DNA from: an uncultured Oscillospiraceae bacterium
Lineage (GTDB): Bacteria; Bacillota; Clostridia; Acetivibrionales; DTU013
Length of the DNA: 64,000 nucleotides
Direction: 5' to 3'
Assembly (NCBI GenBank): GCA_964512095.1
Contig: CAZEIH010000002.1
Coordinates: 104,263-168,262 of the forward strand
The notes under the pieces were generated by a model. It saw nothing but the letters and a program-made list of their open reading frames with translations. It had not been told where the DNA came from and made no database searches. A program made the translations under genes and the position numbers. Below, one piece after another: positions 157-64,000 of the stretch; position 1 is the first letter of the stretch; every line of letters begins with the position of its first letter.

Positions 157-277
157 TAGGGTACACCTCCTCAAATACATTTTGTTTACTTAATCTTAGA
201 TGAACCGCTACTATTTTAACATTATTGTCAGATAAATAGAATACCCTAGCATAAATTTGCAGCCATAATTTTATCTT

Positions 278-373
278 TGTCTTCAGAAGACGCCGACCTT
301 TACGAATTAGTCATCTTCCCTGGTCAGTTGGAGTTCAGTCTCCACCCGACTCCATGAGCAAAGCGAATTTACC
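278..373 (+). repeat. dispersed intergenic repeat, copy A (short variant, hairpin with 2 mismatches)
   Basis: GTCTTCAGAAGAC palindrome, then GGTCAGTTGGAG-TTCAG-TCTCCACCCGAC, then TCCATGAGCAAAGCGAATTTAC. Confidence 0.85.
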
Positions 374-2777: not shown

Positions 2778-3107
2778 TTATACCTTTTCAAAGCGTTCAA
2801 CGTCCAGTACAAATATAGTAGCTCCCCCCACTACAACCTCCACAGGATAGGGAATAAACATACCCGCCATGCCGTTAGGTGTCATGCTGGAATTGATTAC
2901 TTGTTTTCTGCTTTTGGATTTTGTCTTGATAATTCCGATAACGCTATCCAGCTTTTCTTCGTCAACACCCACAAGCAATGTGGTGTTGCCCGCCTTCAGG
3001 AAACCTCCCGTTGAGCAAAGCTTTGTCACTCCAAACCCACTCCTGTTCAATTCCTCCATTACCTTTGAACCATCCTCATCATGAACTACAGCGAATACAA
3101 GTTTCAT
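2778..3107 (-). CDS. darA: cyclic-di-AMP receptor, PII-like protein DarA (YaaQ)
   Basis: 109 aa from ATG 3107, with GAGGAGGGG upstream. MKLVFAVVHDEDG...TKLCSTGGFLKAGNTTLL...YPVEVVVGGATIFVL closely parallels B. subtilis DarA. The ORF-track start at 3125 is a 6-codon over-extension. Confidence 0.9.
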   Translation of the reverse strand: MKLVFAVVHDEDGSKVMEELNRSGFGVTKLCSTGGFLKAGNTTLLVGVDEEKLDSVIGIIKTKSKSRKQVINSSMTPNGMAGMFIPYPVEVVVGGATIFVLDVERFEKV

Positions 3108-5397: not shown

Positions 5398-6210
5398 TCA
5401 GGCTTCAGCCCTGTTTTTTTCATATATAATCCTAAGACCTTCATTCACAAGACGTCCATTCACCTCGTCTATGGATTCTGTCTCCGGTGCAATAAACTTT
5501 GCCAATCCGCCAGTTGCAATGACCTTGGCATTTTCCTCGCCCATCTCCTGCTTGATCTTTTTGACAATATGGTTAATCTGTCCAACGTATCCATGGAATA
5601 CGCCCGACTGCATACTTACAGAGGTGTTGCGACCTATGACCACATCATGCTTTGCCAGATCTATTCTTGGTAGCTTTGCAGTCCTCTGATACAAAGCCTC
5701 GGCTGATATAAGTATTCCAGGGCATATAGCTCCGCCAAGAAACTCTCCCTTTGAGGATATGGCGTTAAATGTGGTTGCGGTGCCAAAGTCAACTACTATC
5801 ACAGGCCCGCCATATAGCTCATAGGCAGCAACTGCATTAACTATCCTGTCTGCTCCAAGCTCCCGGGGATTCTCGTATTTAATATTAATGCCAGTTTTTA
5901 TCCCCGGTCCAATTAACATTGGGTCCTTTTTTATATATCTGCGTATGGCATGCTCAAATGAAAACATAATCGGGGGCACTACGGAAGATATTATTACCGC
6001 CTCAATATCGTCAATGGCGAGCCCTTCATAGTTAAAAAAATTCACGAAGTACATACCAAACTCATCTGCTGTCCAACCTCTGTTAGTTGCCAGCTTCCAA
6101 TGTGCTATAAGTTCCTTTTCTTTATACACGCCAAAACGTATATTGGTATTTCCAACATTTATCGCAAGAAGCAATTGCCATTCCTCCAAATCGAGTCTAT
6201 AACCCATCAT
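5398..6210 (-). CDS. coaX: type III pantothenate kinase
   Basis: Motifs LLLAINVGNTN, LGADRIVNAV and VVDFGTATTF. The likely true start is TTG at 6174 (GGAGG 8 nt upstream, giving M-LLAINVGNTN). The ORF-track ATG is at 6210. Confidence 0.9.
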   Translation of the reverse strand: MMGYRLDLEEWQLLLAINVGNTNIRFGVYKEKELIAHWKLATNRGWTADEFGMYFVNFFNYEGLAIDDIEAVIISSVVPPIMFSFEHAIRRYIKKDPMLIGPGIKTGINIKYENPRELGADRIVNAVAAYELYGGPVIVVDFGTATTFNAISSKGEFLGGAICPGILISAEALYQRTAKLPRIDLAKHDVVIGRNTSVSMQSGVFHGYVGQINHIVKKIKQEMGEENAKVIATGGLAKFIAPETESIDEVNGRLVNEGLRIIYEKNRAEA

Positions 6211-6808: not shown

Positions 6809-7603
6809 TCAACAAGTCAACCCCAGTAACCTCGCGGCATTTCCGCCCATTATTGCGCTTCTCGCCTCGGCTGTCAGCTCCATACTCTGTATCCTTTCCA
6901 CCTCGGTAGACTGATCTCCCCAGGGCGAGTCAGACGCAAAAAGCAGCTTTTCATAACCGTGCTCCAGGTATATTCGATTAAACTGCTCCGGGCTCATTTC
7001 ATGTAGACTAAAAGAGGTGTCAAAATAAATATCCTCCCCAACAAGGTATCGTTCCACGTCATCCCAATACTCAAACCCTCCCATGTGAGCAGCAACCATC
7101 TTGGCACCAGGTATTCCCCTCAGTACCCGCTTCATCCTGTCAGGAGTGCAATGGTAAGGCTCCGGCATACCCAAATCTCCACCTGCATGAAAGATAATCA
7201 CCAGCCCTAAATCTGCTGCTTTTTCATAGATAGGATACATTTTAGGATCATCTACATAAAAGCTCTGGTATTCGGGATGAAACTTAATGCCCCTTAAACC
7301 CGCCTCCCTCATCGCTACCAGCTGCTCCACCCAATCTGAAGTGTCCGGGTGTATAGAGCCGAATGCAATTATTTCATCATCCTGAATGGTAGATGACCAT
7401 TGTATAATACTGGGGATCTGGCTTGGTTTGGTTGCTATATTAAGTATCAAGGATTTGTCGATTCCCGCTTTTTTCATCGATGCCTTTATGCCGCGTACCG
7501 TCCCATCGGACATCAGTGGAAGAGAGGCCGCTTTGGCCAGCGACTCTGTGGCCCTTTGTGCAATTTTATCAGGAAAGCAATGAACATGAAAATCAATAAC
7601 CAT
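6809..7603 (-). CDS. metal-dependent TIM-barrel amidohydrolase (amidohydrolase-2-like)
   Basis: 264 aa with an N-terminal IDFHVH metal-ligand motif and later HAGG / AAHMGG / SDSPW motifs. Confidence 0.75.
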   Translation of the reverse strand: MVIDFHVHCFPDKIAQRATESLAKAASLPLMSDGTVRGIKASMKKAGIDKSLILNIATKPSQIPSIIQWSSTIQDDEIIAFGSIHPDTSDWVEQLVAMREAGLRGIKFHPEYQSFYVDDPKMYPIYEKAADLGLVIIFHAGGDLGMPEPYHCTPDRMKRVLRGIPGAKMVAAHMGGFEYWDDVERYLVGEDIYFDTSFSLHEMSPEQFNRIYLEHGYEKLLFASDSPWGDQSTEVERIQSMELTAEARSAIMGGNAARLLGLTC

Positions 7604-7623
7604 AAATTACTCCAATCCTTTAT

Positions 7624-7670
7624 CTATGTCTTCAGAGGACGCTGAACTCTATAGTCCGGCGATGAATGAA
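7624..7670 (+). repeat. dispersed intergenic repeat, copy B (left half only)
   Basis: CTATGTCTTCAGAGGACGCTGAACTCTATAGTCCGGCGATGAATGAA aligns with the left part of copy D. Confidence 0.75.
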
Positions 7671-7696
7671 ATCAAGCTCCTACAAGTGTGGCTTTC

Positions 7697-8770
7697 TTAT
7701 AAATATCCATATAAGCCCCTTACAGATACCTCTCCGGAGATAAGCTCCCGTCTAACGCCATCATTACAATCCACAACCAGTCTGCCATCCGAGGTAATAT
7801 CCACAGCAATCCCTGTATACTCCACATCTTTTAGTGTAAACCGGACCTCCTTGCCAAGAGTAGCCGAGTATTCTCTCCACATGTCAATTATTTTGGAGTT
7901 CTTTCCATCAAGGATATGCCTCAATAAGGTATCTAACTCTCTGAGTACAGCCCGAATCAATTCCAGTCTCCCATCGCCGCCACCTTTTAAACCCCCAACC
8001 TTTGACAATTTCTCATCCCGTAGGGCTTCCTTGGACATACCAGCCTCTGTCCTGTCTTCTAAATTACTATTAGCCATAAGTATCGAGGATGCCCTATTCT
8101 GTAACTCTTCTGAGAAATCTGCAGCTGATTGGGAATAATTTATCCCCATCCCTAAGACTATGTGGTTTACCCTATCCACCTCAGAATTCATCTCTAGCAA
8201 TATTCCACATATCTTTTTCCCTTCGGCCACTATATCATTAGGCCACTTTATACCTGTTTTTAGACCTGTCACAGTATATATAGCCCTAACTGCTGCCACA
8301 GCTGCCGCCAGTGTAAATATTGGTGTTTCAACAGGAGCCATTGGAGGTCTCAGTACCACCGACAAATATATCCCCTTATCCTGAGGGGATTCCCAGCTCC
8401 TGCCCAACCTGCCCTTTCCTTGTGTCTGCTGAAAGGCAACTACCGCCAGACCATCACTACACCCTTTTGATGCCATGGCTCCTGCATGGGTGTTTGTAGA
8501 GGGCAACACAGCATAACAAAGGACCTCACGCCCCACAATCTGTGTACCCAAGTTATTCTCTATTTCAAAGGAGTTCAGCAGCCCCTCAGTAGGTATTAGC
8601 CTATAGCCCTTTTTAGAAGCAGCCTCTATTGTATAGCCATCAAGCCTTAGCTCCTCTATATACTTCCATATGGCCGTCCTCGATACACCTAAGCGTTCTC
8701 CCATTTCAGCGCCGGTGACACAGCCGGGCACTGCCTCCTTCAAAAACTTCAGAACAACATATTTCATCAT
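7697..8770 (-). CDS. birA: bifunctional biotin-[acetyl-CoA-carboxylase] ligase / biotin operon repressor
   Basis: 357 aa with an N-terminal wHTH, the ligase motif QGKGRLGRSW, KWPNDI, and a C-terminal SH3-like tail. Carries roughly 30 extra residues (ANSNLEDRTEAGMSKEALRDEKLSKVGGLKGGGDG) between the catalytic and C-terminal domains. Confidence 0.9.
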   Translation of the reverse strand: MMKYVVLKFLKEAVPGCVTGAEMGERLGVSRTAIWKYIEELRLDGYTIEAASKKGYRLIPTEGLLNSFEIENNLGTQIVGREVLCYAVLPSTNTHAGAMASKGCSDGLAVVAFQQTQGKGRLGRSWESPQDKGIYLSVVLRPPMAPVETPIFTLAAAVAAVRAIYTVTGLKTGIKWPNDIVAEGKKICGILLEMNSEVDRVNHIVLGMGINYSQSAADFSEELQNRASSILMANSNLEDRTEAGMSKEALRDEKLSKVGGLKGGGDGRLELIRAVLRELDTLLRHILDGKNSKIIDMWREYSATLGKEVRFTLKDVEYTGIAVDITSDGRLVVDCNDGVRRELISGEVSVRGLYGYL

Positions 8771-23178: not shown

Positions 23179-23450
23179 TAGGACACCCCTCTATTATTTA
23201 AAATGCAAACATCTATCTGTCTTTTCCGATAGTTAACATAATACAATATTGTCCTTTGAAAATCAACAAAATCACATTCTCGATTCAATAGTATTATTTA
23301 CCACCATTCCGTCGTAAGCTAACCATTGTTTTTTAATTCCAAATAGATAAGCAAATCCATAGAACATGATTGTTCTCGAGAATAGCCTATTGTGTTGAAT
23401 CTAGCAATATCGCAACCATATACTATCAGCATTTATTTGATTAATGATAG

Positions 23451-23490
23451 GTTAGATAAGGTTAGATAAGGTTACATAAGTTTACATAAA
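23451..23490. repeat. tandem 10-bp repeat (GTTAGATAAG x4, degenerating)
   Basis: gttagataag gttagataag gttacataag tttacataaa, with a possible fifth degenerate unit at 23441-23450. Confidence 0.85.
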
Positions 23491-23500
23491 TGTGTTTTTT

Positions 23501-23590
23501 GCCTTCAGATGACGCTGATCTCTATAGGCCGTAGGTGAATGAAGACGAATTAATTCCCACCTGACTCCCTGAGCAAAGCGAATTGACTCA
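23501..23590 (+). repeat. dispersed intergenic repeat, copy C (left hairpin arm deleted)
   Basis: GCCTTCAGATGACGC..CTCTATAGGCCGTAGGTGAATGAAGACGAATTAATT-CCCACCTGACTCCCTGAGCAAAGCGAATTGACT. Confidence 0.85.
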
Positions 23591-23622
23591 CGTACAAAAT
23601 AACCCATGGTAGGTGAATAAGT

Positions 23623-23643
23623 TGCTGATTGCTGATTGCTGAT
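23623..23643. repeat. tandem 7-bp repeat (TGCTGAT x3)
   Basis: tgctgat tgctgat tgctgat, followed by the degenerate tgttgtcgtt. Confidence 0.85.
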
Positions 23644-23689
23644 TGTTGTCGTTATATACTAAATAAACCATTAAGAAATACATTGAATA

Positions 23690-23713
23690 GAGGGTATACA
23701 ATAGTATACCCTC
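23690..23713 (-). terminator. probable terminator hairpin after leuB
   Basis: GAGGGTATAC-AATA-GTATACCCTC (10-bp stem), 53 nt downstream of the leuB stop. The downstream tract is T-rich but not a clean U-run. Confidence 0.5.
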
Positions 23714-23765
23714 CTACTTAACAATGGCTATTCCATGTTTCACACAGGTTCTAAATCCAACAGGC

Positions 23766-24845
23766 TCACCCTTGGATCTCTTCAACAATAAGTCTTCCAA
23801 TTTCAGCAGTACCGGCAATAACTCCACCAACCGATGCTATGTCAGCTGTGCGGTATCCTTTGCCCAAAACCTGCTTTACAGCGTTCTCAATTGCATTTGC
23901 TCCTGCATACTGCTTAAATGAATAGCGTAGCATCATAGCTACTGACAAAATCGTCGCTATAGGATTTGCCTTATCTTGGCCTGCAATATCAGGTGCAGAC
24001 CCATGGATAGGCTCATAAAGCCCGAGCCTTCCGCTTCCAAGGCTTGCCGAAGGAAGCATACCGATTGATCCGGTTATCATCGACGCCTCATCTGACAGTA
24101 TGTCACCAAATAAATTAGACGTCACGATGACATCAAACTGTCGAGGGTTCCTGACAAGCTGCATTGCGGCATTGTCAACATACATATGATTCAGCGTTAT
24201 ATTCGGGTATTCCTGGGCCTTTTTGACGACTACCTCTCGCCATAGTCTTGAGCTCTCCAGCACATTTGCCTTATCAATGGAGGTGACCACCCCACTACGC
24301 TTAGAAGCCGCTTCAAAGGCAATAGATGCTATTCGCTCTACTTCTCCTACCGAGTATCTTTCAGTATCAAAGGCCGATTCATTTTCTGTGCCGACATCAG
24401 ACCTACCACGCTCTCCAAAGTAGATACCTCCGGTAAGCTCTCGGACAACCAATATATCGACCTTATCTCCAATAATCTCAGACTTTAGAGGAGAAGCTTC
24501 TCTTAATGTCTCATAAATCACCGCTGGTCTTAAATTTGCGTAAAGGCCAAGGCCCGCCCTGATTCCCAGGAGCCCTGCCTCTGGCGTCCTGCTGCGAGGC
24601 AAACCCTCCCATTTAGATCCACCAACTGCTCCTAACAGTACTGCATCGCTTTCTCTGCAGGCCTTCAGTGTCACATCCGGCAGCGGTACGCCATACTTAT
24701 CTATAGCACAGCCTCCCATCAATTCCTCTTGCAGTTCAAAACCCATGTCATACTTATCCCCGACTGCTTTGAGTACTGTCAATGCCTGGTCCACAATCTC
24801 GGGTCCAATACCATCGCCCTTTAAAACTGTTATTTTATAGTTCAC
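23766..24845 (-). CDS. leuB: 3-isopropylmalate dehydrogenase
   Basis: 359 aa with GTG start after GGAGG. Contains the [12 protein letters not shown] signature. Confidence 0.93.
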
Positions 24846-26770: not shown

Positions 26771-26890
26771 AATCAATTCACTTCGCTCAGGGAGTCAGGT
26801 GGAGACTGAACTCCACCTGACCAAGGAAGTTAATTAATTCGTCTTCATTCATCGCCGACTTATAGAGGTCTATGTCTTCTGAAGACATAG
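26771..26890 (-). repeat. dispersed intergenic repeat, copy D (longest, opposite orientation)
   Basis: Contains all modules. The 21-nt palindrome CTATGTCTTCTGAAGACATAG is at 26870-26890 and the hairpin GTCAGGTGGAG-ACTGAA-CTCCACCTGAC is at 26794-26821. Confidence 0.9.
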
Positions 26891-27199
26891 ATAAATTCAT
26901 TACCCCCACCCCCCACCTAAGAGGAGGGGGACTATGACATAGTTCAGTCATTATGTCTAAAAAACTTAGTGGTGTGTAGCGATTCGATATAAATCATAAT
27001 AACGCACACTACAGCTTTATTCTTCCTGTAACTTACTATTATTGAATACTATAATGAATGTTTTTTGTCATTAGCACCCGAAATTGCATTATTCACTAAT
27101 GGTAAGGTATATGCGTCTATGATACAGCATAAAATACCCTCTGTCTGAATACATAAGCAGATAATGCAGCGTTATTAGCGCATTACAATAGTGTAAGTC

Positions 27200-28696: not shown

Positions 28697-29374
28697 TTAT
28701 TTTTCAGGTATACTTGTAAGCTCAAGTCTACCATTGCCCTTTGCATAGGCAAGGAACACAGCCTGCTCTTCAGTTACCTCAAACAGTATATATTGGGGCA
28801 GCTTACTTGTCTCATCACCATCTAACAATTTCCCGTCCTCGGCAACTAATCCAGCAATCCTAATACCCTTCAGCAGCTTGACTCCGTTAGACAGCGGCGG
28901 CACTCCAACCACTCCCCCAGCCTCCGGAGGAGTGTTATTCTCTTCACCATAGTTGGGAATATAAATCACATCAACATACTGATCCTTTGTCAGCTGCCAG
29001 GCATTTGCCTGATCACATTTTGGTTCCAGGCAAAACAGCCTGCTAGACCTATTCAGCACTTCAATCCCCTGGATAGGTTCATCCGCCAACCTGCCCTTAA
29101 GTAGCAGCTCGCCCCGGTGTATGAAATCTGCCGCTACCATATTAGCAGCTTCATCAATACTCCTAACTGCATCCTTATGTACTGCACTACTTCCTATTTC
29201 TTTTATTTCCAGCATTTCTCCGGTTATAACAGTATTCTCGTCAATATCTCTGGCTGCAAAAACTACACTCTCCCTGACCTCATAGCCTGACGCATTTGAA
29301 ATAATCATCATCTCTATTACAACAAGCAGGATGACTATCACAAGGGCGCCACCAACCCAACCATATTTTCTCAT
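28697..29374 (-). CDS. SAF-domain protein, CpaB/RcpC-like pilus assembly protein
   Basis: N-terminal TM segment, then a SAF-like region (VVFAARDIDENTVITGEMLEIKEI). Last gene of the Tad-like cluster. Start ATG at 29374 after TAGGTG. Confidence 0.65.
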   Translation of the reverse strand: MRKYGWVGGALVIVILLVVIEMMIISNASGYEVRESVVFAARDIDENTVITGEMLEIKEIGSSAVHKDAVRSIDEAANMVAADFIHRGELLLKGRLADEPIQGIEVLNRSSRLFCLEPKCDQANAWQLTKDQYVDVIYIPNYGEENNTPPEAGGVVGVPPLSNGVKLLKGIRIAGLVAEDGKLLDGDETSKLPQYILFEVTEEQAVFLAYAKGNGRLELTSIPEK

Positions 29375-29404
29375 ATAAAGCACCTACATATCAATATTTT
29401 TTAT

Positions 29405-29503
29405 CAATGTCTTCAGAAGACACTATCATCAAATGAATTAGATTCCTTGGTCAGGTGGAGTTTAGTCTCCACCTGACTCCCTGAACAAAGCAAACTGACT
29501 ACC
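29405..29503 (+). repeat. dispersed intergenic repeat, copy E (short variant, intact hairpin)
   Basis: TGTCTTCAGAAGACA, then GGTCAGGTGGAG-TTTAG-TCTCCACCTGAC (29449-29476), then TCCCTGAACAAAGCAAACTGACT. Confidence 0.88.
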
Positions 29504-60174: not shown

Positions 60175-61089
60175 TTACCTTAAAAAATCAATCAGTGAAG
60201 GCATAATTATCCTTGCACCTCCCGCAAGAGATGCCCTGTACACATTTTCTTCGTTCTTGAGGTTCATAATGGTTTCAGTCATATCTACATTCTCGTTTTC
60301 GCTCATTAACTTTGTAAAATTGGTGTTGTCATTCATCATTCTGTTAGCTGTCAGCTCAAGTCTATTTACACGAGCACCCACATCGGCTCTGACTCTAAGG
60401 ACATTATCCAGATTGTCAGAAAAATTGTGTGCCAAGCTTGTAATTGCACCATAATCAGCATTGGCCAAAGCAGTAATCAATGAGTCCATATCCTGAATAA
60501 ACTTACCTGCACCACCTACATCTCCAGCTCCAATATCGGCTCCGGCATTAAACAGGTCCCCACCTGTCACATTAATATTGATGCTGTCGCCCAGACCAAT
60601 TTCATAGTTTATTTCCTCATTATTACTCACTTCTAATAAGAAATTCCCGTCTGCGTCCAGTAGCTTTTCATCCGTCTTAAAGCCAGTAAAAATGTTCCTT
60701 CCGGCATAAGTTGTATTTCCCAAATTGATAATCTGTGTCTTAAGCTGCCTGATTTCCATCTCTGTTGCCTTCAAATCCTCAGGGCTCTCTATTGCATCGC
60801 TTCCTACCACCAGTTCTTTCACCCTCTGGAATACTTCACCCATATCGTTTAATGCTGATTCAGTGATTTCAAGCCATGACTGAGCGTCTTTCAGATTTCG
60901 TTGGTATTGCTTGATCTCCGCCACATCGGTACGAAGCTTCAATGCTCTTGCCGCCACAACAGGGTCGTCAGATGGGACCTGTATCTTTTTCCCAGAAGCG
61001 AGCTGCGCCTGATACTTGTCCATCCTTGTCAAATTATTACCTATATAATTGACCATATTATTGATAAGCATGTTATTAGTTATTCTCAT
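60175..61089 (-). CDS. flgL: flagellar hook-filament junction protein FlgL
   Basis: Start ATG at 61089 after AGGAGGG: MRITNNMLINNM...YQAQLASGKKI. The ORF-track start at 61173 reads into repeat copy F and is rejected. Confidence 0.9.
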   Translation of the reverse strand: MRITNNMLINNMVNYIGNNLTRMDKYQAQLASGKKIQVPSDDPVVAARALKLRTDVAEIKQYQRNLKDAQSWLEITESALNDMGEVFQRVKELVVGSDAIESPEDLKATEMEIRQLKTQIINLGNTTYAGRNIFTGFKTDEKLLDADGNFLLEVSNNEEINYEIGLGDSININVTGGDLFNAGADIGAGDVGGAGKFIQDMDSLITALANADYGAITSLAHNFSDNLDNVLRVRADVGARVNRLELTANRMMNDNTNFTKLMSENENVDMTETIMNLKNEENVYRASLAGGARIIMPSLIDFLR

Positions 61090-61121
61090 ATCCAAACCCT
61101 CCTGTACGAATAATAAACAGT

Positions 61122-61162
61122 GCTCCACCTGGCTCCCTGAGCGAAGCGAATTGACTGTGACC
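61122..61162 (+). repeat. dispersed intergenic repeat, copy F (right end only)
   Basis: CTCCACCTGGCTCCCTGAGCGAAGCGAATTGACT, located between flgK and flgL. Confidence 0.75.
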
Positions 61163-61208
61163 CTCAGCAGCAACCTTTATGTCTGCAATATCTTATGGTA
61201 CACTAGCG

Positions 61209-62843
61209 TCATACAAACAATCCATTTATAAGCTTGTCATATATCTCACCCATAGTCTGAATCATTTTTGCCGCTGCATTGTAAGCATGCTGGAATTTTA
61301 CCAGGTTGGTCATTTCCTCATCTATTGATACACCTGAGTCTGATAGCCTCCTGTTAATAATCTGATTGATGACGACCCCTTGATTATCAGCATAGTTTCC
61401 AGCCTGCTCCGAATCTATGCCCAATGTTGCAACAAGCGACTTCATAAAATCCTCGGGAGCACCCTCCGAAAACATATCCGCATTCCTTCTGAATCCAAGT
61501 AGCTTATTCAAGACCTCGATATTCCCCGCTTCACCGGATATATCAGAAGTAGCAATCAGGTTATAGTCATCAAGTATATCGGAACTGACGGAGAAATTTT
61601 TAGCTGTTATATTCTCATACAGATCATACACCTGAGCTGGATCATTAGGATCTGCTGCACCGGAGATAAAATCAACGCTAGATGCTGGTAGTTTACTCTC
61701 CCCAGTCATTGTAAAGAATCTTATACCGTCAACATAAGAATTGTAACCAAATCCAGCTGTATGGCCAGTTCCATTTTCGCCAACATCGAATGCCTTATCT
61801 CCGTCAGTGTCTATATATCCCTCATTAAATGCCCGTGCAAAGGTACGAACAAATTCATTCAGCTTCTTCTGATAAAATGGTATTCCTTTATAATTTGGCG
61901 AAACGGCGTTATTATCAGGATTCACAAAGCCCTCATTACCATCTCTCACATCCAAATATCCCCTAAGCTCTCCACCTTTTATGTTCAGTTTGTTGCCGTC
62001 AGCCCATTTTATCTCATACAGATTACCTATATCCTCTTTGTTCACCTTCTTAGCTGCCGGTCTTTGCTCCATAGCCAGCTTACTAACAGCAAAATGGTCA
62101 ACAAGGGCCTTACCGCTAATGGTTATTACGAAATGCCTATCCTCTCTTCCATCTGGTGTATGCCCTGTTACTACTTCATTGGCATCAATATTGATTATTC
62201 TTGACAGCTTATCCACAAGAAGAGTCCTTTGGTCCCTCATATCATTAGCTGTATTTCCATCCAGCTCCGTTATATATATTTGCCTGTTTAGCTGCTGGAT
62301 CTGTGTTGCGTAGGAGTTGACCTCCTCAACCTTCGTCTGTATCCTATAGTTCACGTCCTTCTGCATTTCTTCCAGATGGGAGGCCATACTGTTGAAATAC
62401 TTAGTTAGCGTCACGCCTCTCTGCTTTACAAGGGATCTGACTGCAGCACTGCTAGGATCCTTGGCAAGCTCCTGCATAGAATCAAAAAAGTCGCTCATTA
62501 TCGTAGTAAAGCCACTGTCTGAGGGCTCGTTGAAGGTTACCTCAATATCTGAGAGCACCTCCTTCTTTGCAATCCATTCGCCGTGGGACAGATTCTCGCT
62601 CCAGAACTTGAAATCTAGATACTCATCTCGAATTCTCTTAACACCTATAACATCAGAACCTGTACCCATCATTCCGGTTCCATCTGCCAGTGCCATTGGT
62701 CTGGAGGCAATCTGGACCGCCTGCTGCCTTGAGTAGCCCGGAGTATTTATATTGTTAAGGTTATGGTTTACTGTATCCAGACTGCGTTGAGCTGAAAAAA
62801 GGCCACGCACCGCTACATTTAAACCAAAAAATGATTCAGCCAT
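61209..62843 (-). CDS. flgK: flagellar hook-associated protein FlgK
   Basis: 544 aa with N-terminus FGLNVAVRGLFSAQRSLDTVNHNLNNINTPGYSRQ and C-terminus SGVSIDEEMTNLVKFQHAYNAAAKMI. Confidence 0.9.
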   Translation of the reverse strand: MAESFFGLNVAVRGLFSAQRSLDTVNHNLNNINTPGYSRQQAVQIASRPMALADGTGMMGTGSDVIGVKRIRDEYLDFKFWSENLSHGEWIAKKEVLSDIEVTFNEPSDSGFTTIMSDFFDSMQELAKDPSSAAVRSLVKQRGVTLTKYFNSMASHLEEMQKDVNYRIQTKVEEVNSYATQIQQLNRQIYITELDGNTANDMRDQRTLLVDKLSRIINIDANEVVTGHTPDGREDRHFVITISGKALVDHFAVSKLAMEQRPAAKKVNKEDIGNLYEIKWADGNKLNIKGGELRGYLDVRDGNEGFVNPDNNAVSPNYKGIPFYQKKLNEFVRTFARAFNEGYIDTDGDKAFDVGENGTGHTAGFGYNSYVDGIRFFTMTGESKLPASSVDFISGAADPNDPAQVYDLYENITAKNFSVSSDILDDYNLIATSDISGEAGNIEVLNKLLGFRRNADMFSEGAPEDFMKSLVATLGIDSEQAGNYADNQGVVINQIINRRLSDSGVSIDEEMTNLVKFQHAYNAAAKMIQTMGEIYDKLINGLFV

Positions 62844-62849
62844 TTATTC

Positions 62850-64000
62850 TCACCTACCCGCTATTCCAAGTCTATTAACAATTGTTTCCATCATTGTATC
62901 CATTATATTGAGTACTCTTGAAGCCGCATCGTATGCAAACTTAAATTTCATCATGTTTGACATTTCCTCATCCATAGAGACACCTGTTATTGAAGTCCTC
63001 TGCGCATCAGCCGACTCCACCAGCTTACTCTGGCTTTCTGCGATCCTTGACGAATCGGCGCCATTGTTCCCCATGTTCAGTATTATATCCTGATAATAGT
63101 CATCCACGCTTACAACCCCCGTACTATCCCTGATTATTAACTTATGCCTCAGGTTTGCTATCTCAAGAGCGTTTGAATTATCTCCACTCTCTCCCGTTTT
63201 GGATGCAGCCATATTTGATAGGTCTGACAGGTTGGAGTTTAGCCTTATATTCCCCATTTCCAGTGGTTTACTTGAACTTATCGCCACAAAGAAATCCTCT
63301 CCATAACTTGCCGGATCCTTAATATTCATTCCGCTTCTATGCAGATAATTCACCTCTCTGAGCATAGCATTAACCAAGGCGTTTAGCCTCTGCTTCAGTT
63401 GTGATACTACATTCAAAGACTCTCCAACCAATGAGTAGTTAGATACGACATCCATATTTGTATCAGATGCCATATTTGTTGTAATGGCCTCATATGAGCC
63501 TAAGTCAATGAAATCCGTCAGGCTATATGTACTACCATCTAAAGCACCGGCAAAGCTATCCCATGCAGCAGTATTATCAGTTATTACCGATGTATCCATT
63601 CCTACACTTTCCAATGCATTTCTCAACACATCCATGTCTGCCGGCACTCCATTAGTCAGGAGTATTGCATACTTGTTGGAATTAGCCCTGAAGCCTGTCG
63701 TTGAACCTATTTGATTGGCCAAATCATCAGCATTTGATGCATCTATGACTCTAACATTATAATCCAGACCTCTTTTGTCTAGTTCATTTGTATATGCAGC
63801 AATTTGATCTGCTATTTCATCTGAAGCTGTAGTACTTGTATCTACATAAAAAACCACATCGGCCTTTGTGTTAGGTGTACCGTTCTCATAGCTTCCTATT
63901 GCACCGGAAACATCTCCCCTTGACTCCATAAGTCCCCTTATGATACCGCTGCTTACGGGTACCTCAATACTAGTCCCTGCCAGCTTCGGAACAAAGAAAT
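62850..64000 (-). CDS. second FlgK-like hook-associated protein (5' end outside the window)
   Basis: The frame stays open to the window edge. The C-terminus TGVSMDEEMSNMMKFKFAYDAASRVL is the FlgK signature. Contains an alpha/beta-looking insert (VVFYVDTSTT...AILLTNGVP). Confidence 0.8.
   Translation of the reverse strand, partial: FFVPKLAGTSIEVPVSSGIIRGLMESRGDVSGAIGSYENGTPNTKADVVFYVDTSTTASDEIADQIAAYTNELDKRGLDYNVRVIDASNADDLANQIGSTTGFRANSNKYAILLTNGVPADMDVLRNALESVGMDTSVITDNTAAWDSFAGALDGSTYSLTDFIDLGSYEAITTNMASDTNMDVVSNYSLVGESLNVVSQLKQRLNALVNAMLREVNYLHRSGMNIKDPASYGEDFFVAISSSKPLEMGNIRLNSNLSDLSNMAASKTGESGDNSNALEIANLRHKLIIRDSTGVVSVDDYYQDIILNMGNNGADSSRIAESQSKLVESADAQRTSITGVSMDEEMSNMMKFKFAYDAASRVLNIMDTMMETIVNRLGIAGR

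Follow-up and report, generated by a model that had tools for sequence, protein, structure and literature searches.

The 64-kb stretch analysed here (contig CAZEIH010000002.1, positions 104,263 to 168,262, from an uncultured Oscillospiraceae bacterium; hereafter the window) carries six copies, A to F, of a non-coding repeat with two predicted hairpins. The repeat belongs to a lineage-restricted and recently active family, one insertion of which is segregating between strains. We are highly confident that it is a mobile, non-autonomous element which targets the motif TTTAT. With a lesser degree of assurance, we regard it as probable that the element derives from the IS200/IS605 family of insertion sequences (IS) and resembles the palindrome-associated transposable elements (PATEs), being inserted 3' of TTTAT without duplication of the target. 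The kind of element is familiar and the family itself appears to be undescribed, as judged from Rfam, from phage, plasmid and IMG/VR DNA collections and from the literature. The three DNA collections gave no match to the element, and a literature search by core sequence returned unrelated primers only, with no description of the family. Rfam had no match in the window at the gathering score, and raising the E-value to 10 added only spurious eukaryotic microRNA-type matches on copy D.

Family extent, structure and insertion

A profile hidden Markov model (HMM) was built from 21 full-length metagenome copies and used for scanning the window as well as for counting copies elsewhere. In the window it finds exactly six copies (268-372, 7617-7671, 23497-23589, 26771-26897 on the minus strand, 29398-29501 and 61123-61158), the same six that had been listed, at essentially these positions, in an earlier note made from the sequence alone, and none besides. 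A repeat finder and a multiple alignment also recover the repeat. Further, the tail pattern CCACCYGRCTCCMTGARCRAAG has five matches in the window against 0.01 expected, and none of 100 dinucleotide-preserving shuffles reaches five.

Beyond the window, a scan of species-representative genomes gave only two true matches, a full copy in a Bacillota metagenome-assembled genome (MAG; L005, following our numbering of the sequences compared with the window) and a right half in one from Clostridiaceae (L007). Metagenome contigs yielded 63 stretches, all but three of them from LSQX01, which is a biogas-reactor metagenome assembly (PMC5985405), and the contigs L008 and L011, which overlap the window, place the window organism in this assembly. 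The profile HMM counts 96 non-overlapping copies in 501 kb of sequence, including about 90 outside the window at unrelated loci. In assembly ERZ2847836, four contigs, which carry the leuC region of the window, its AraC region and the other element-bearing regions L052 and L063, have coverages of 12.2, 11.6, 12.0 and 11.2-fold, respectively, and these matching values imply that at least part of the LSQX copies reside in the same genome. The nearest named relatives of the LeuC protein of the window organism are "Acetivibrionales bacterium", Acetivibrio and Ruminiclostridium, at 85-88% identity. A single uncultured lineage of anaerobic digesters, Acetivibrionales-like and within Bacillota, has accumulated on the order of 100 copies of the family. 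The earlier note had considered that the copies could be pieces of a known insertion sequence or prophage end, and none of the copies could be recognised as part of an IS or prophage.

The consensus is 125 nt long (TTTATCTATGTCTTCAGAAGACGCCGACCTCTATAGGTCGGCGATGAATGAAGACGAATTAATTAACTTCCTTGGTCAGGTGGAGTTCAGTCTCCACCTGACTCCCTGAGCGAAGCGAATTGACT) and consists of an element of about 120 nt with its flanking TTTAT and a conserved T. Both edges are sharp, the information content rising from about 0.1 to 1.5-1.9 bits at TTTATC and returning to about 0.1 directly after ..TTGACT. Each position of TTTAT is kept in 55-59 of 60 copies, and the T after GAC in 56 of 60. The left hairpin is formed by GTCTTCA, an internal loop, CGCCGACCT-CTAT-AGGTCGGCG, a further internal loop and TGAAGAC, and the right hairpin by an 11-12-bp stem (GTCAGGTGGAG/CTCCACCTGAC) that is lengthened by pairing of the tail with AATTAACTTCCTTGG on its 5' side. 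The inner left stem begins at +17, and the right stem stops 22 nt before the element end. The hairpins at the two ends have perfect stems and unrelated sequences, and the termini, TTTATCTATGTC... and ...GCGAATTGACT, are not reverse complements, so that the element has no terminal inverted repeats. The predicted two-hairpin fold has z-scores of -7.2 as DNA and of -8.1 and -7.0 as RNA of the two strands.

The earlier note had described a modular repeat with a terminal palindrome around GTCTTC-N-GAAGAC, an optional block, an 11-bp hairpin and a conserved tail. Palindrome, hairpin and tail are all present, and the palindrome is a perfect 21-mer in copy D (CTATGTCTTCTGAAGACATAG). The optional block is real sequence but not a separate module; it is the 3' half of the larger left hairpin, which had not been recognised, and is missing in a deletion subfamily. 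The 'modules' arose from a single unit of 120-125 nt by internal deletion and truncation. Among the members of the short-form subfamily, which lacks about 24 nt of this 3' half, are copies A and E of the window as well as L017, L020, L032, L046, L047, L054, L055 and L059, while other copies have internal deletions, partial duplications or truncations at either end.

The comparison with related genomes suggested in the earlier note revealed sister lineages without the element at syntenic sites and an empty site in a near-identical strain. The latter concerns the young L052 copy (120 nt), which is carried by L083 and L084 but missing from L082, a contig from another sample of the same project. 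The flanks of L082 are 99.5-99.9% identical to those of L083 and L084 over 11.4 kb, and the element accounts for the only indel. The filled allele reads ...ACATTTTAT, then the element CTATGTC...GAATTGAC, then CTGTTTAC, and in the empty allele ...ACATTTTAT is directly followed by TTGTTTAC, TTTAT being retained and nothing duplicated. Since TTTAT is kept in the empty allele, it pre-exists in the target and does not represent the first bases of the element. At the right junction, the T after GAC could be either the last base of the element or a preferred +1 base of the target, as has been reported for IS608 (C after TTAC) and ISDra2 (G after TTGAT) (PMC5934647). An older, degenerate copy on the contigs of the L052 locus is fixed in all strains. 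No further empty site was found in the strain sets for copies B, D, E and F and for two L063 copies, which were all filled or ended in the repeat, and at the L063 sites there is no synteny with the sister species carrying P0242.

Two sister lineages with 88-89% identical LeuC, syntenic with the window at about 15-38 kb, have no copy, and neither does a third sister stretch (L103, 21 kb). The three sister lineages provide in total about 58 kb without copies, of which 21 kb are syntenic with the window. The spacer that holds copy E measures 133 nt in the window versus 23-33 nt in the sister lineages.

Target-site duplications, also proposed as a check in the earlier note, are absent: direct repeats of at least 4 nt occur at the junctions of 0/60 copies in any register, and shorter ones are at chance level. 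The local alignment score of flank to flank is 5.0, compared with 4.9 for mismatched flank pairs. A long or imperfect target duplication, hinted at by the site of copy E, was unsupported across 58 copies and was discarded.

Of the 96 copies, 94 are intergenic and the other two lie within spurious extensions of open reading frames (ORFs). Copies between co-directional genes are antisense in 25 cases and sense in 23, and there are also copies between divergent (14) and convergent (5) genes. Divergence from the consensus ranges from 1% to 25% with a median of 5.6%, and this wide range points to proliferation that continued over time. RNAalifold returned no structure for the 60-copy alignment, and stem pairing was counted on the named two-hairpin structure in its place. 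Stem cells are paired in 93.3% of cases versus 93.4% in column shuffles, with double changes at 2 pairs versus 3.0 expected; the 3' arm of the right hairpin served to find the loci and its conservation is therefore biased. The compensatory changes that the earlier note had proposed to look for are thus no more frequent than in shuffles. Taken together, the 25:23 orientation and the uncompensated stem substitutions indicate that the copies decay neutrally, which they do by substitution, internal deletion and truncation, and after insertion there is no selection keeping them folded. The suggestion in the earlier note of an RNA-level module for processing or stability, or of a protein-binding site, finds no support in these numbers. 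The orthologue of copy C in a related strain (L001/L002) has a different internal deletion, which means that old copies decay independently in each lineage.

A few copies bear marks of another kind. The variant AGAAGAC>ATTCATC, which makes the left stem a perfect 20 bp, is found in L013, L023, L047 and L049, with a one-base-shorter version in L048. It recurs on long and short forms and on both the GCCGACC and GCTGACC stem variants, a pattern that suggests repeated hairpin-templated correction. Additionally, L028 (1219-1294) is a perfect 34+34-nt palindrome with two right ends around a hairpin loop; it is the only symmetric doublet among the copies and likewise looks like a product of hairpin-templated correction. 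The recurrent variant and the L028 palindrome are signs of hairpin formation in vivo. L044 has one doubly changed pair in the left stem.

Rearranged right ends were seen in two other copies. In L020 (12102-12250), the terminal 15 nt (CGAAGCGAATTGACT) occur again 25 nt beyond the end of the copy, and in L034 (2270-2416) the right half is partly duplicated in tandem.

Copies in the window and their surroundings

The six copies in the window are as follows.

Copy A, 270..373, plus strand: short, internally deleted form with TTTAT at 270-274, element at 275-372 and conserved +1 position at 373; HMM 83 bits; located downstream of holB, where it meets a PSP1/yaaT-like gene at its stop codon (374-376).
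Copy B, 7619..7670, plus strand: left half only, with TTTAT at 7619-7623, element at 7624-7670 and the break inside the left hairpin; HMM 44 bits (HMM positions 6-60); birA-like gene (7697-8770) on one side and amidohydrolase gene (6809-7603) on the other.
Copy C, 23497..23588, plus strand: left end degenerate, 5' arm of the right hairpin deleted; HMM 67 bits; spacer of the isopropylmalate dehydrogenase and oppB-like (oligopeptide permease) genes.
Copy D, 26771..26895, minus strand: full length, with element at 26772-26890, TTTAT at 26891-26895 (reverse complement) and +1 position at 26771; HMM 145 bits; 473-nt spacer between an AraC-type regulator gene and leuC.
Copy E, 29400..29500, plus strand: short form with TTTAT at 29400-29404 and element at 29405-29499; HMM 70 bits; within a cluster of tad-type pilus genes, where its neighbours are a SAF/CpaB-like gene and a 179-aa ORF that has neither annotation nor Pfam match.
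Copy F, 61123..61156, plus strand: right end only, consisting of the 3' arm of the right hairpin and the tail; HMM 30 bits; flgK/flgL spacer, about 30 nt upstream of the likely flgL start and within a spurious ORF extension.

Copy D is the window copy closest to the consensus (7 differences in 126) and was found in every strain contig that reaches its site. The G+C content of the window is about 42%, its GC skew is close to -0.2, and its minus strand carries nearly all genes. The earlier note had placed every copy between co-directional genes. This holds for copies B-F, each flanked by two minus-strand genes; of the genes flanking copy A, the window contains only the upstream one. Its assignment of some spacers to operons stands for flgK/flgL (copy F) and for the cpaB-like gene (copy E); the neighbour that it had called tadE-like is the unannotated 179-aa ORF. 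The window copies are split 5:1 by orientation; as the split relative to GC skew is 27:29 across the family, this is not a family property.

Roles in transcription were also considered. The statement in the earlier note that the copies are not simple terminators agrees with copies C, D and E, which have neither a U-tract nor an overlap with a predicted terminator. For the family, a terminator-like hairpin adjoins the left end in 5/65 cases compared with 2-4 of 65-66 at shifted positions, which is not significant, and a terminator role was rejected. The terminal TTGACT is -35-like, and -10-like hexamers are not enriched at 16-18-nt spacing after it in 82 right flanks. An outward hybrid promoter starting from TTGACT was ruled out on this basis and because a simple promoter scan gave no excess.

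Mode of movement and alternative explanations

In an IS200/IS605-type mechanism, the element would move as folded single-stranded DNA. A Y1 HUH transposase of this type, encoded elsewhere in the genome and acting in trans, would recognise the two subterminal hairpins and insert the element 3' of TTTAT ('peel-and-paste'). The element would thereby be a PATE-like derivative of an IS200/IS605-family insertion sequence, and host operons would be affected, if at all, only incidentally, for instance through hairpins in the flgK-flgL and tad-like transcripts. Insertion of published family members takes place 3' of a target motif of 4-5 nt that is not duplicated, and the donor site is rejoined without a scar; their left and right ends form stem-loops. 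A short left target motif that is retained at the empty site, end hairpins and the lack of duplications and inverted repeats constitute the "peel-out-paste-in" signature of the Y1 HUH transposase TnpA, which is also that of PATEs (PMC10055086, PMC5934647, PMC6006769). The repeat described here, with its retained left motif, end hairpins and neither duplication nor inverted repeats, fits this signature.

The target motif TTTAT is the same as that of ISGst2 (5'-TTTAT-3') of Geobacillus stearothermophilus, a host that likewise belongs to Bacillota and whose genome also contains protein-less PATE-like relatives (PMC10055086). With the PATEs related to ISGst1-5 (PMC10055086), the element shares the lack of coding capacity, hairpins at both ends, the absence of terminal inverted repeats and target duplications, insertion directly 3' of a pentanucleotide that is kept in the empty site, and tens of copies per genome that are presumably mobilised in trans. 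It differs from them in that no similarity to an annotated element has been shown, no tnpA/tnpB partner was found and there is no replication-strand bias, and its right-end part is probably too short for a full guide-RNA scaffold. Guide pairing was assessed with a rule inferred from the A+16:T-3 and A+17:T-4 pairs of IS608 (PMC5934647) and checked on the IS608 right end (GAAT/TCAA). In a register of our own choosing, the AAGA that directly precedes the inner left hairpin (+13 to +16) could pair with TTAT at 3/3 canonical positions, and the CTTG before the right hairpin, again a short word, could pair with TGAC at 2/3.

Several observations weigh against an IS200/IS605 origin. The guide-pairing words are short A-rich tetranucleotides, with a rough chance probability of 0.03-0.1, and the single empty site found is 1 nt off a clean event (the empty allele has T where the filled one has C following ..TTGAC). 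The RAYT (REP-associated tyrosine transposase) or IS200-like transposase, or the IS with matching ends, that the earlier note had proposed to look for was found neither in the window nor beside the copies. The 30 window proteins scanned against Pfam include no transposase, the window genes being housekeeping genes, no protein recurs beside the copies, and there is no tnpA or tnpB beside the roughly 90 copies, a scope that does not extend to the whole host genome. By eye, nothing but ordinary genes was seen among the ORFs upstream of right-end-only copies, and the search for a parent IS gave no case of a left-end-only copy followed by a right-end-only copy.

Strand and hairpins weigh in the same direction. 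IS200/IS605 elements are described as inserting into the lagging-strand template (PMC6006769). No such preference is seen here: on contigs with clear GC skew, the top strand of the element coincides with the G-rich strand in 27 cases and with the C-rich strand in 29, and the orientation relative to genes is 25:23, although on short contigs GC skew and gene strand are only proxies for replication direction. The TnpA of IS608 binds similar imperfect palindromes at both ends, whereas the end hairpins here are unrelated and perfect. The missing tnpA/tnpB, the lack of strand bias and the unlike, perfect-stem hairpins are the reasons why our confidence in the full statement is only moderate and well below that in a mobile, TTTAT-targeting element as such.

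The same features leave some room for other enzymes. A mobile non-autonomous element moved by an IS607-type serine recombinase, an IS110-type DEDD enzyme with bridge RNA, an IS91/Helitron-like rolling-circle enzyme or an undescribed one is unlikely in our view, though it would be compatible with the lack of inverted repeats, duplication and strand bias and with dissimilar end hairpins, which are atypical for IS200/IS605. IS607-family elements likewise have no inverted repeats or duplications, but they exchange at a GG dinucleotide in the termini and the target and possess subterminal direct repeats instead of hairpins (PMC6188088). Neither GG at the junctions nor subterminal direct repeats are seen here, and a left-only 5-nt target that is retained in the empty site is a signature of IS200/IS605. 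IS110-type insertion leaves roughly 11-14 nt of conserved target on both sides, whereas the conserved flank in this family is limited to TTTAT on the left and, possibly, a single T on the right, and the GTTC/CTTG target of IS91 is not seen. A more speculative idea, to which we give a small chance, is that the element is moved by an undescribed enzyme specific for single strands or hairpins, or that its right half and flank are transcribed into a compact guide RNA for a TnpB-like nuclease acting in trans, the roughly 100 dispersed copies forming a library of guides that guards the family from loss. The lack of strand bias, the unrelated perfect-stem hairpins and the tail pairing 5' of the right hairpin could have such a meaning.

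The earlier note had proposed a mobile element resembling a miniature inverted-repeat transposable element (MITE), a repetitive extragenic palindrome (REP) or a bacterial interspersed mosaic element (BIME). The mobile, non-coding nature stands, but a classical MITE derived from an insertion sequence with a DDE transposase is effectively refuted. Small size, high copy number, intergenic location and deletion derivatives would all suit it, and the family shares with classical MITEs such as Correia/NEMIS, RUP and Nezha that it is short, non-coding, high-copy, intergenic and mobilised in trans. Those elements have terminal inverted repeats and target duplications, however, and both were tested for and are absent here: TTTATCTATGTC at the left and AGTCAATTCGC, obtained by reverse-complementing the right end, do not form inverted repeats, no copy among 60 has a target duplication of at least 4 nt, and the empty site has no duplicated sequence.

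A host-maintained repeat similar to REP/BIME or BOX, serving as an mRNA-stabilising hairpin, a site for a nucleoid or topoisomerase protein or part of a domesticated RAYT system, is rather improbable. The strong predicted hairpins, the strictly intergenic location, also inside operons, and mosaic variants that recall BIME or BOX favour it; against it stand the 25:23 orientation to transcription, stem substitutions that are uncompensated with pairing equal to that of shuffled controls, the free truncation and deletion of copies and the sister lineages without the element at the same sites. Like REP/BIME/REPIN-RAYT systems, in which a Y1 HUH enzyme is believed to act on single-stranded hairpins, the family consists of abundant intergenic hairpin repeats inside operons with mosaic arrangements. 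REPs, in contrast, are single palindromes of 20-40 nt with a conserved 5' tetranucleotide, typically in inverted doublets and with a single-copy RAYT that the repeats flank, whereas the unit here is 120 nt long and asymmetric, with two hairpins, a target motif and no GTAG-type 5' tetranucleotide. The family is moreover polymorphic and lineage-restricted and not long-persisting, and no RAYT gene was seen in the window or in the sequence beside the copies, which is less than the whole host genome.

BOX of Streptococcus pneumoniae and bcr1 of the Bacillus cereus group are also intergenic repeats of Bacillota with a similar size (about 100-150 nt), stable predicted folds and a modular or variable composition, for which the mobilising enzyme is unknown. 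By their general descriptions, as opposed to a comparison of sequences, both can be set apart from the present family. BOX is made of boxA, boxB and boxC modules with a variable number of boxB, in distinction to the single unit here, and bcr1 is associated with a TTTAT that is reported to be duplicated on both sides, whereas here TTTAT is found on the left only and without duplication.

A structured cis-regulatory or small RNA family, such as a riboswitch-like leader, a processing site or an omega-RNA scaffold for a TnpB-type nuclease acting in trans, seems very improbable. The predicted fold is stable in either orientation, and PATEs have often been reported to encode omega-RNAs (PMC10055086). 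On the other side, the window has no Rfam family at threshold, and the copies show no orientation bias, no covariation and no promoter-like enrichment. Further, the right-end portion of about 70 nt is shorter than the described TnpB guide scaffolds.

If the link to IS200/IS605 that we favour is true, the family would represent a strong amplification of PATEs in Clostridia without strand bias and with traces of hairpin-templated correction.

Gene calls, assemblies and neighbouring repeats

Copies of the element create false ORF extensions, as in flgL and the CpaB-like gene, and place stable predicted hairpins inside operons (tad-like and flgK-flgL). The flgL extension had been called spurious in the earlier note, and this is borne out by the Flagellin_N domain, which begins at residue 31 of the 332-aa ORF, and by gene calls of 304 aa on other contigs. 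For both reasons, the most likely start of flgL (ORF 60175-61173) is near 61092. For the CpaB-like gene (ORF 28697-29383), the most likely start is ATG 29374, not GTG 29383, since the gene has 225-226 aa on other contigs. Two flgK-like genes with about 33% identity lie in tandem at 61209-62843 (544 aa) and 62850-64000, the second being cut by the window end and having 641 aa on other contigs.

Many independent assemblies end inside or beside a copy (L096-L102, L085 and L003), and the Joint Genome Institute (JGI) scaffold L081 has a run of N within one, which indicates that the family fragments assemblies of this genome. Copies that are present or absent can serve as strain-level markers for an abundant uncultured biogas-reactor bacterium.

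Other repeats are found close to some copies. A second small repeat, CCCCCACCTAAGAGGAGGGGGACT(A/T)TGACAT(A/T)GTTCA, with a G/C-rich hairpin of its own, lies at 26896-26950 in the window and at 3217-3260 in L051. It adjoins the left end of the element at these two unrelated loci (copy D and the 5'-truncated L051 copy), in opposite relative orientations. Copy C is flanked by tandem arrays of a 10-nt unit (AGGTTACATA, 4.1 repeats, window 23449-23489) and a 7-nt unit (TTGCTGA, 3.4 repeats, window 23622-23645). Both arrays are shorter or absent in L001/L002, so the spacer of copy C varies in repeat number between strains. In the same two contigs, the stop codon of isopropylmalate dehydrogenase is directly followed by about 75 additional G+C-rich bases (L001 about 5420-5500, L002 about 3017-3100; ...AGGCGTTTAGGCGTGGCGCACGGAGTGTAGCGTAGGGCGAATTCATTTCGCCC...GGGGGCCTGCCCCC). 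These are missing from the orthologous window region at about 23700-23770 and may be another small inserted element. Finally, the feoB-feoA spacer of L087 (2531-2710) matches itself at a 48-nt offset with about 95% identity over about 130 nt, which suggests a tandem repeat of about 48 nt.

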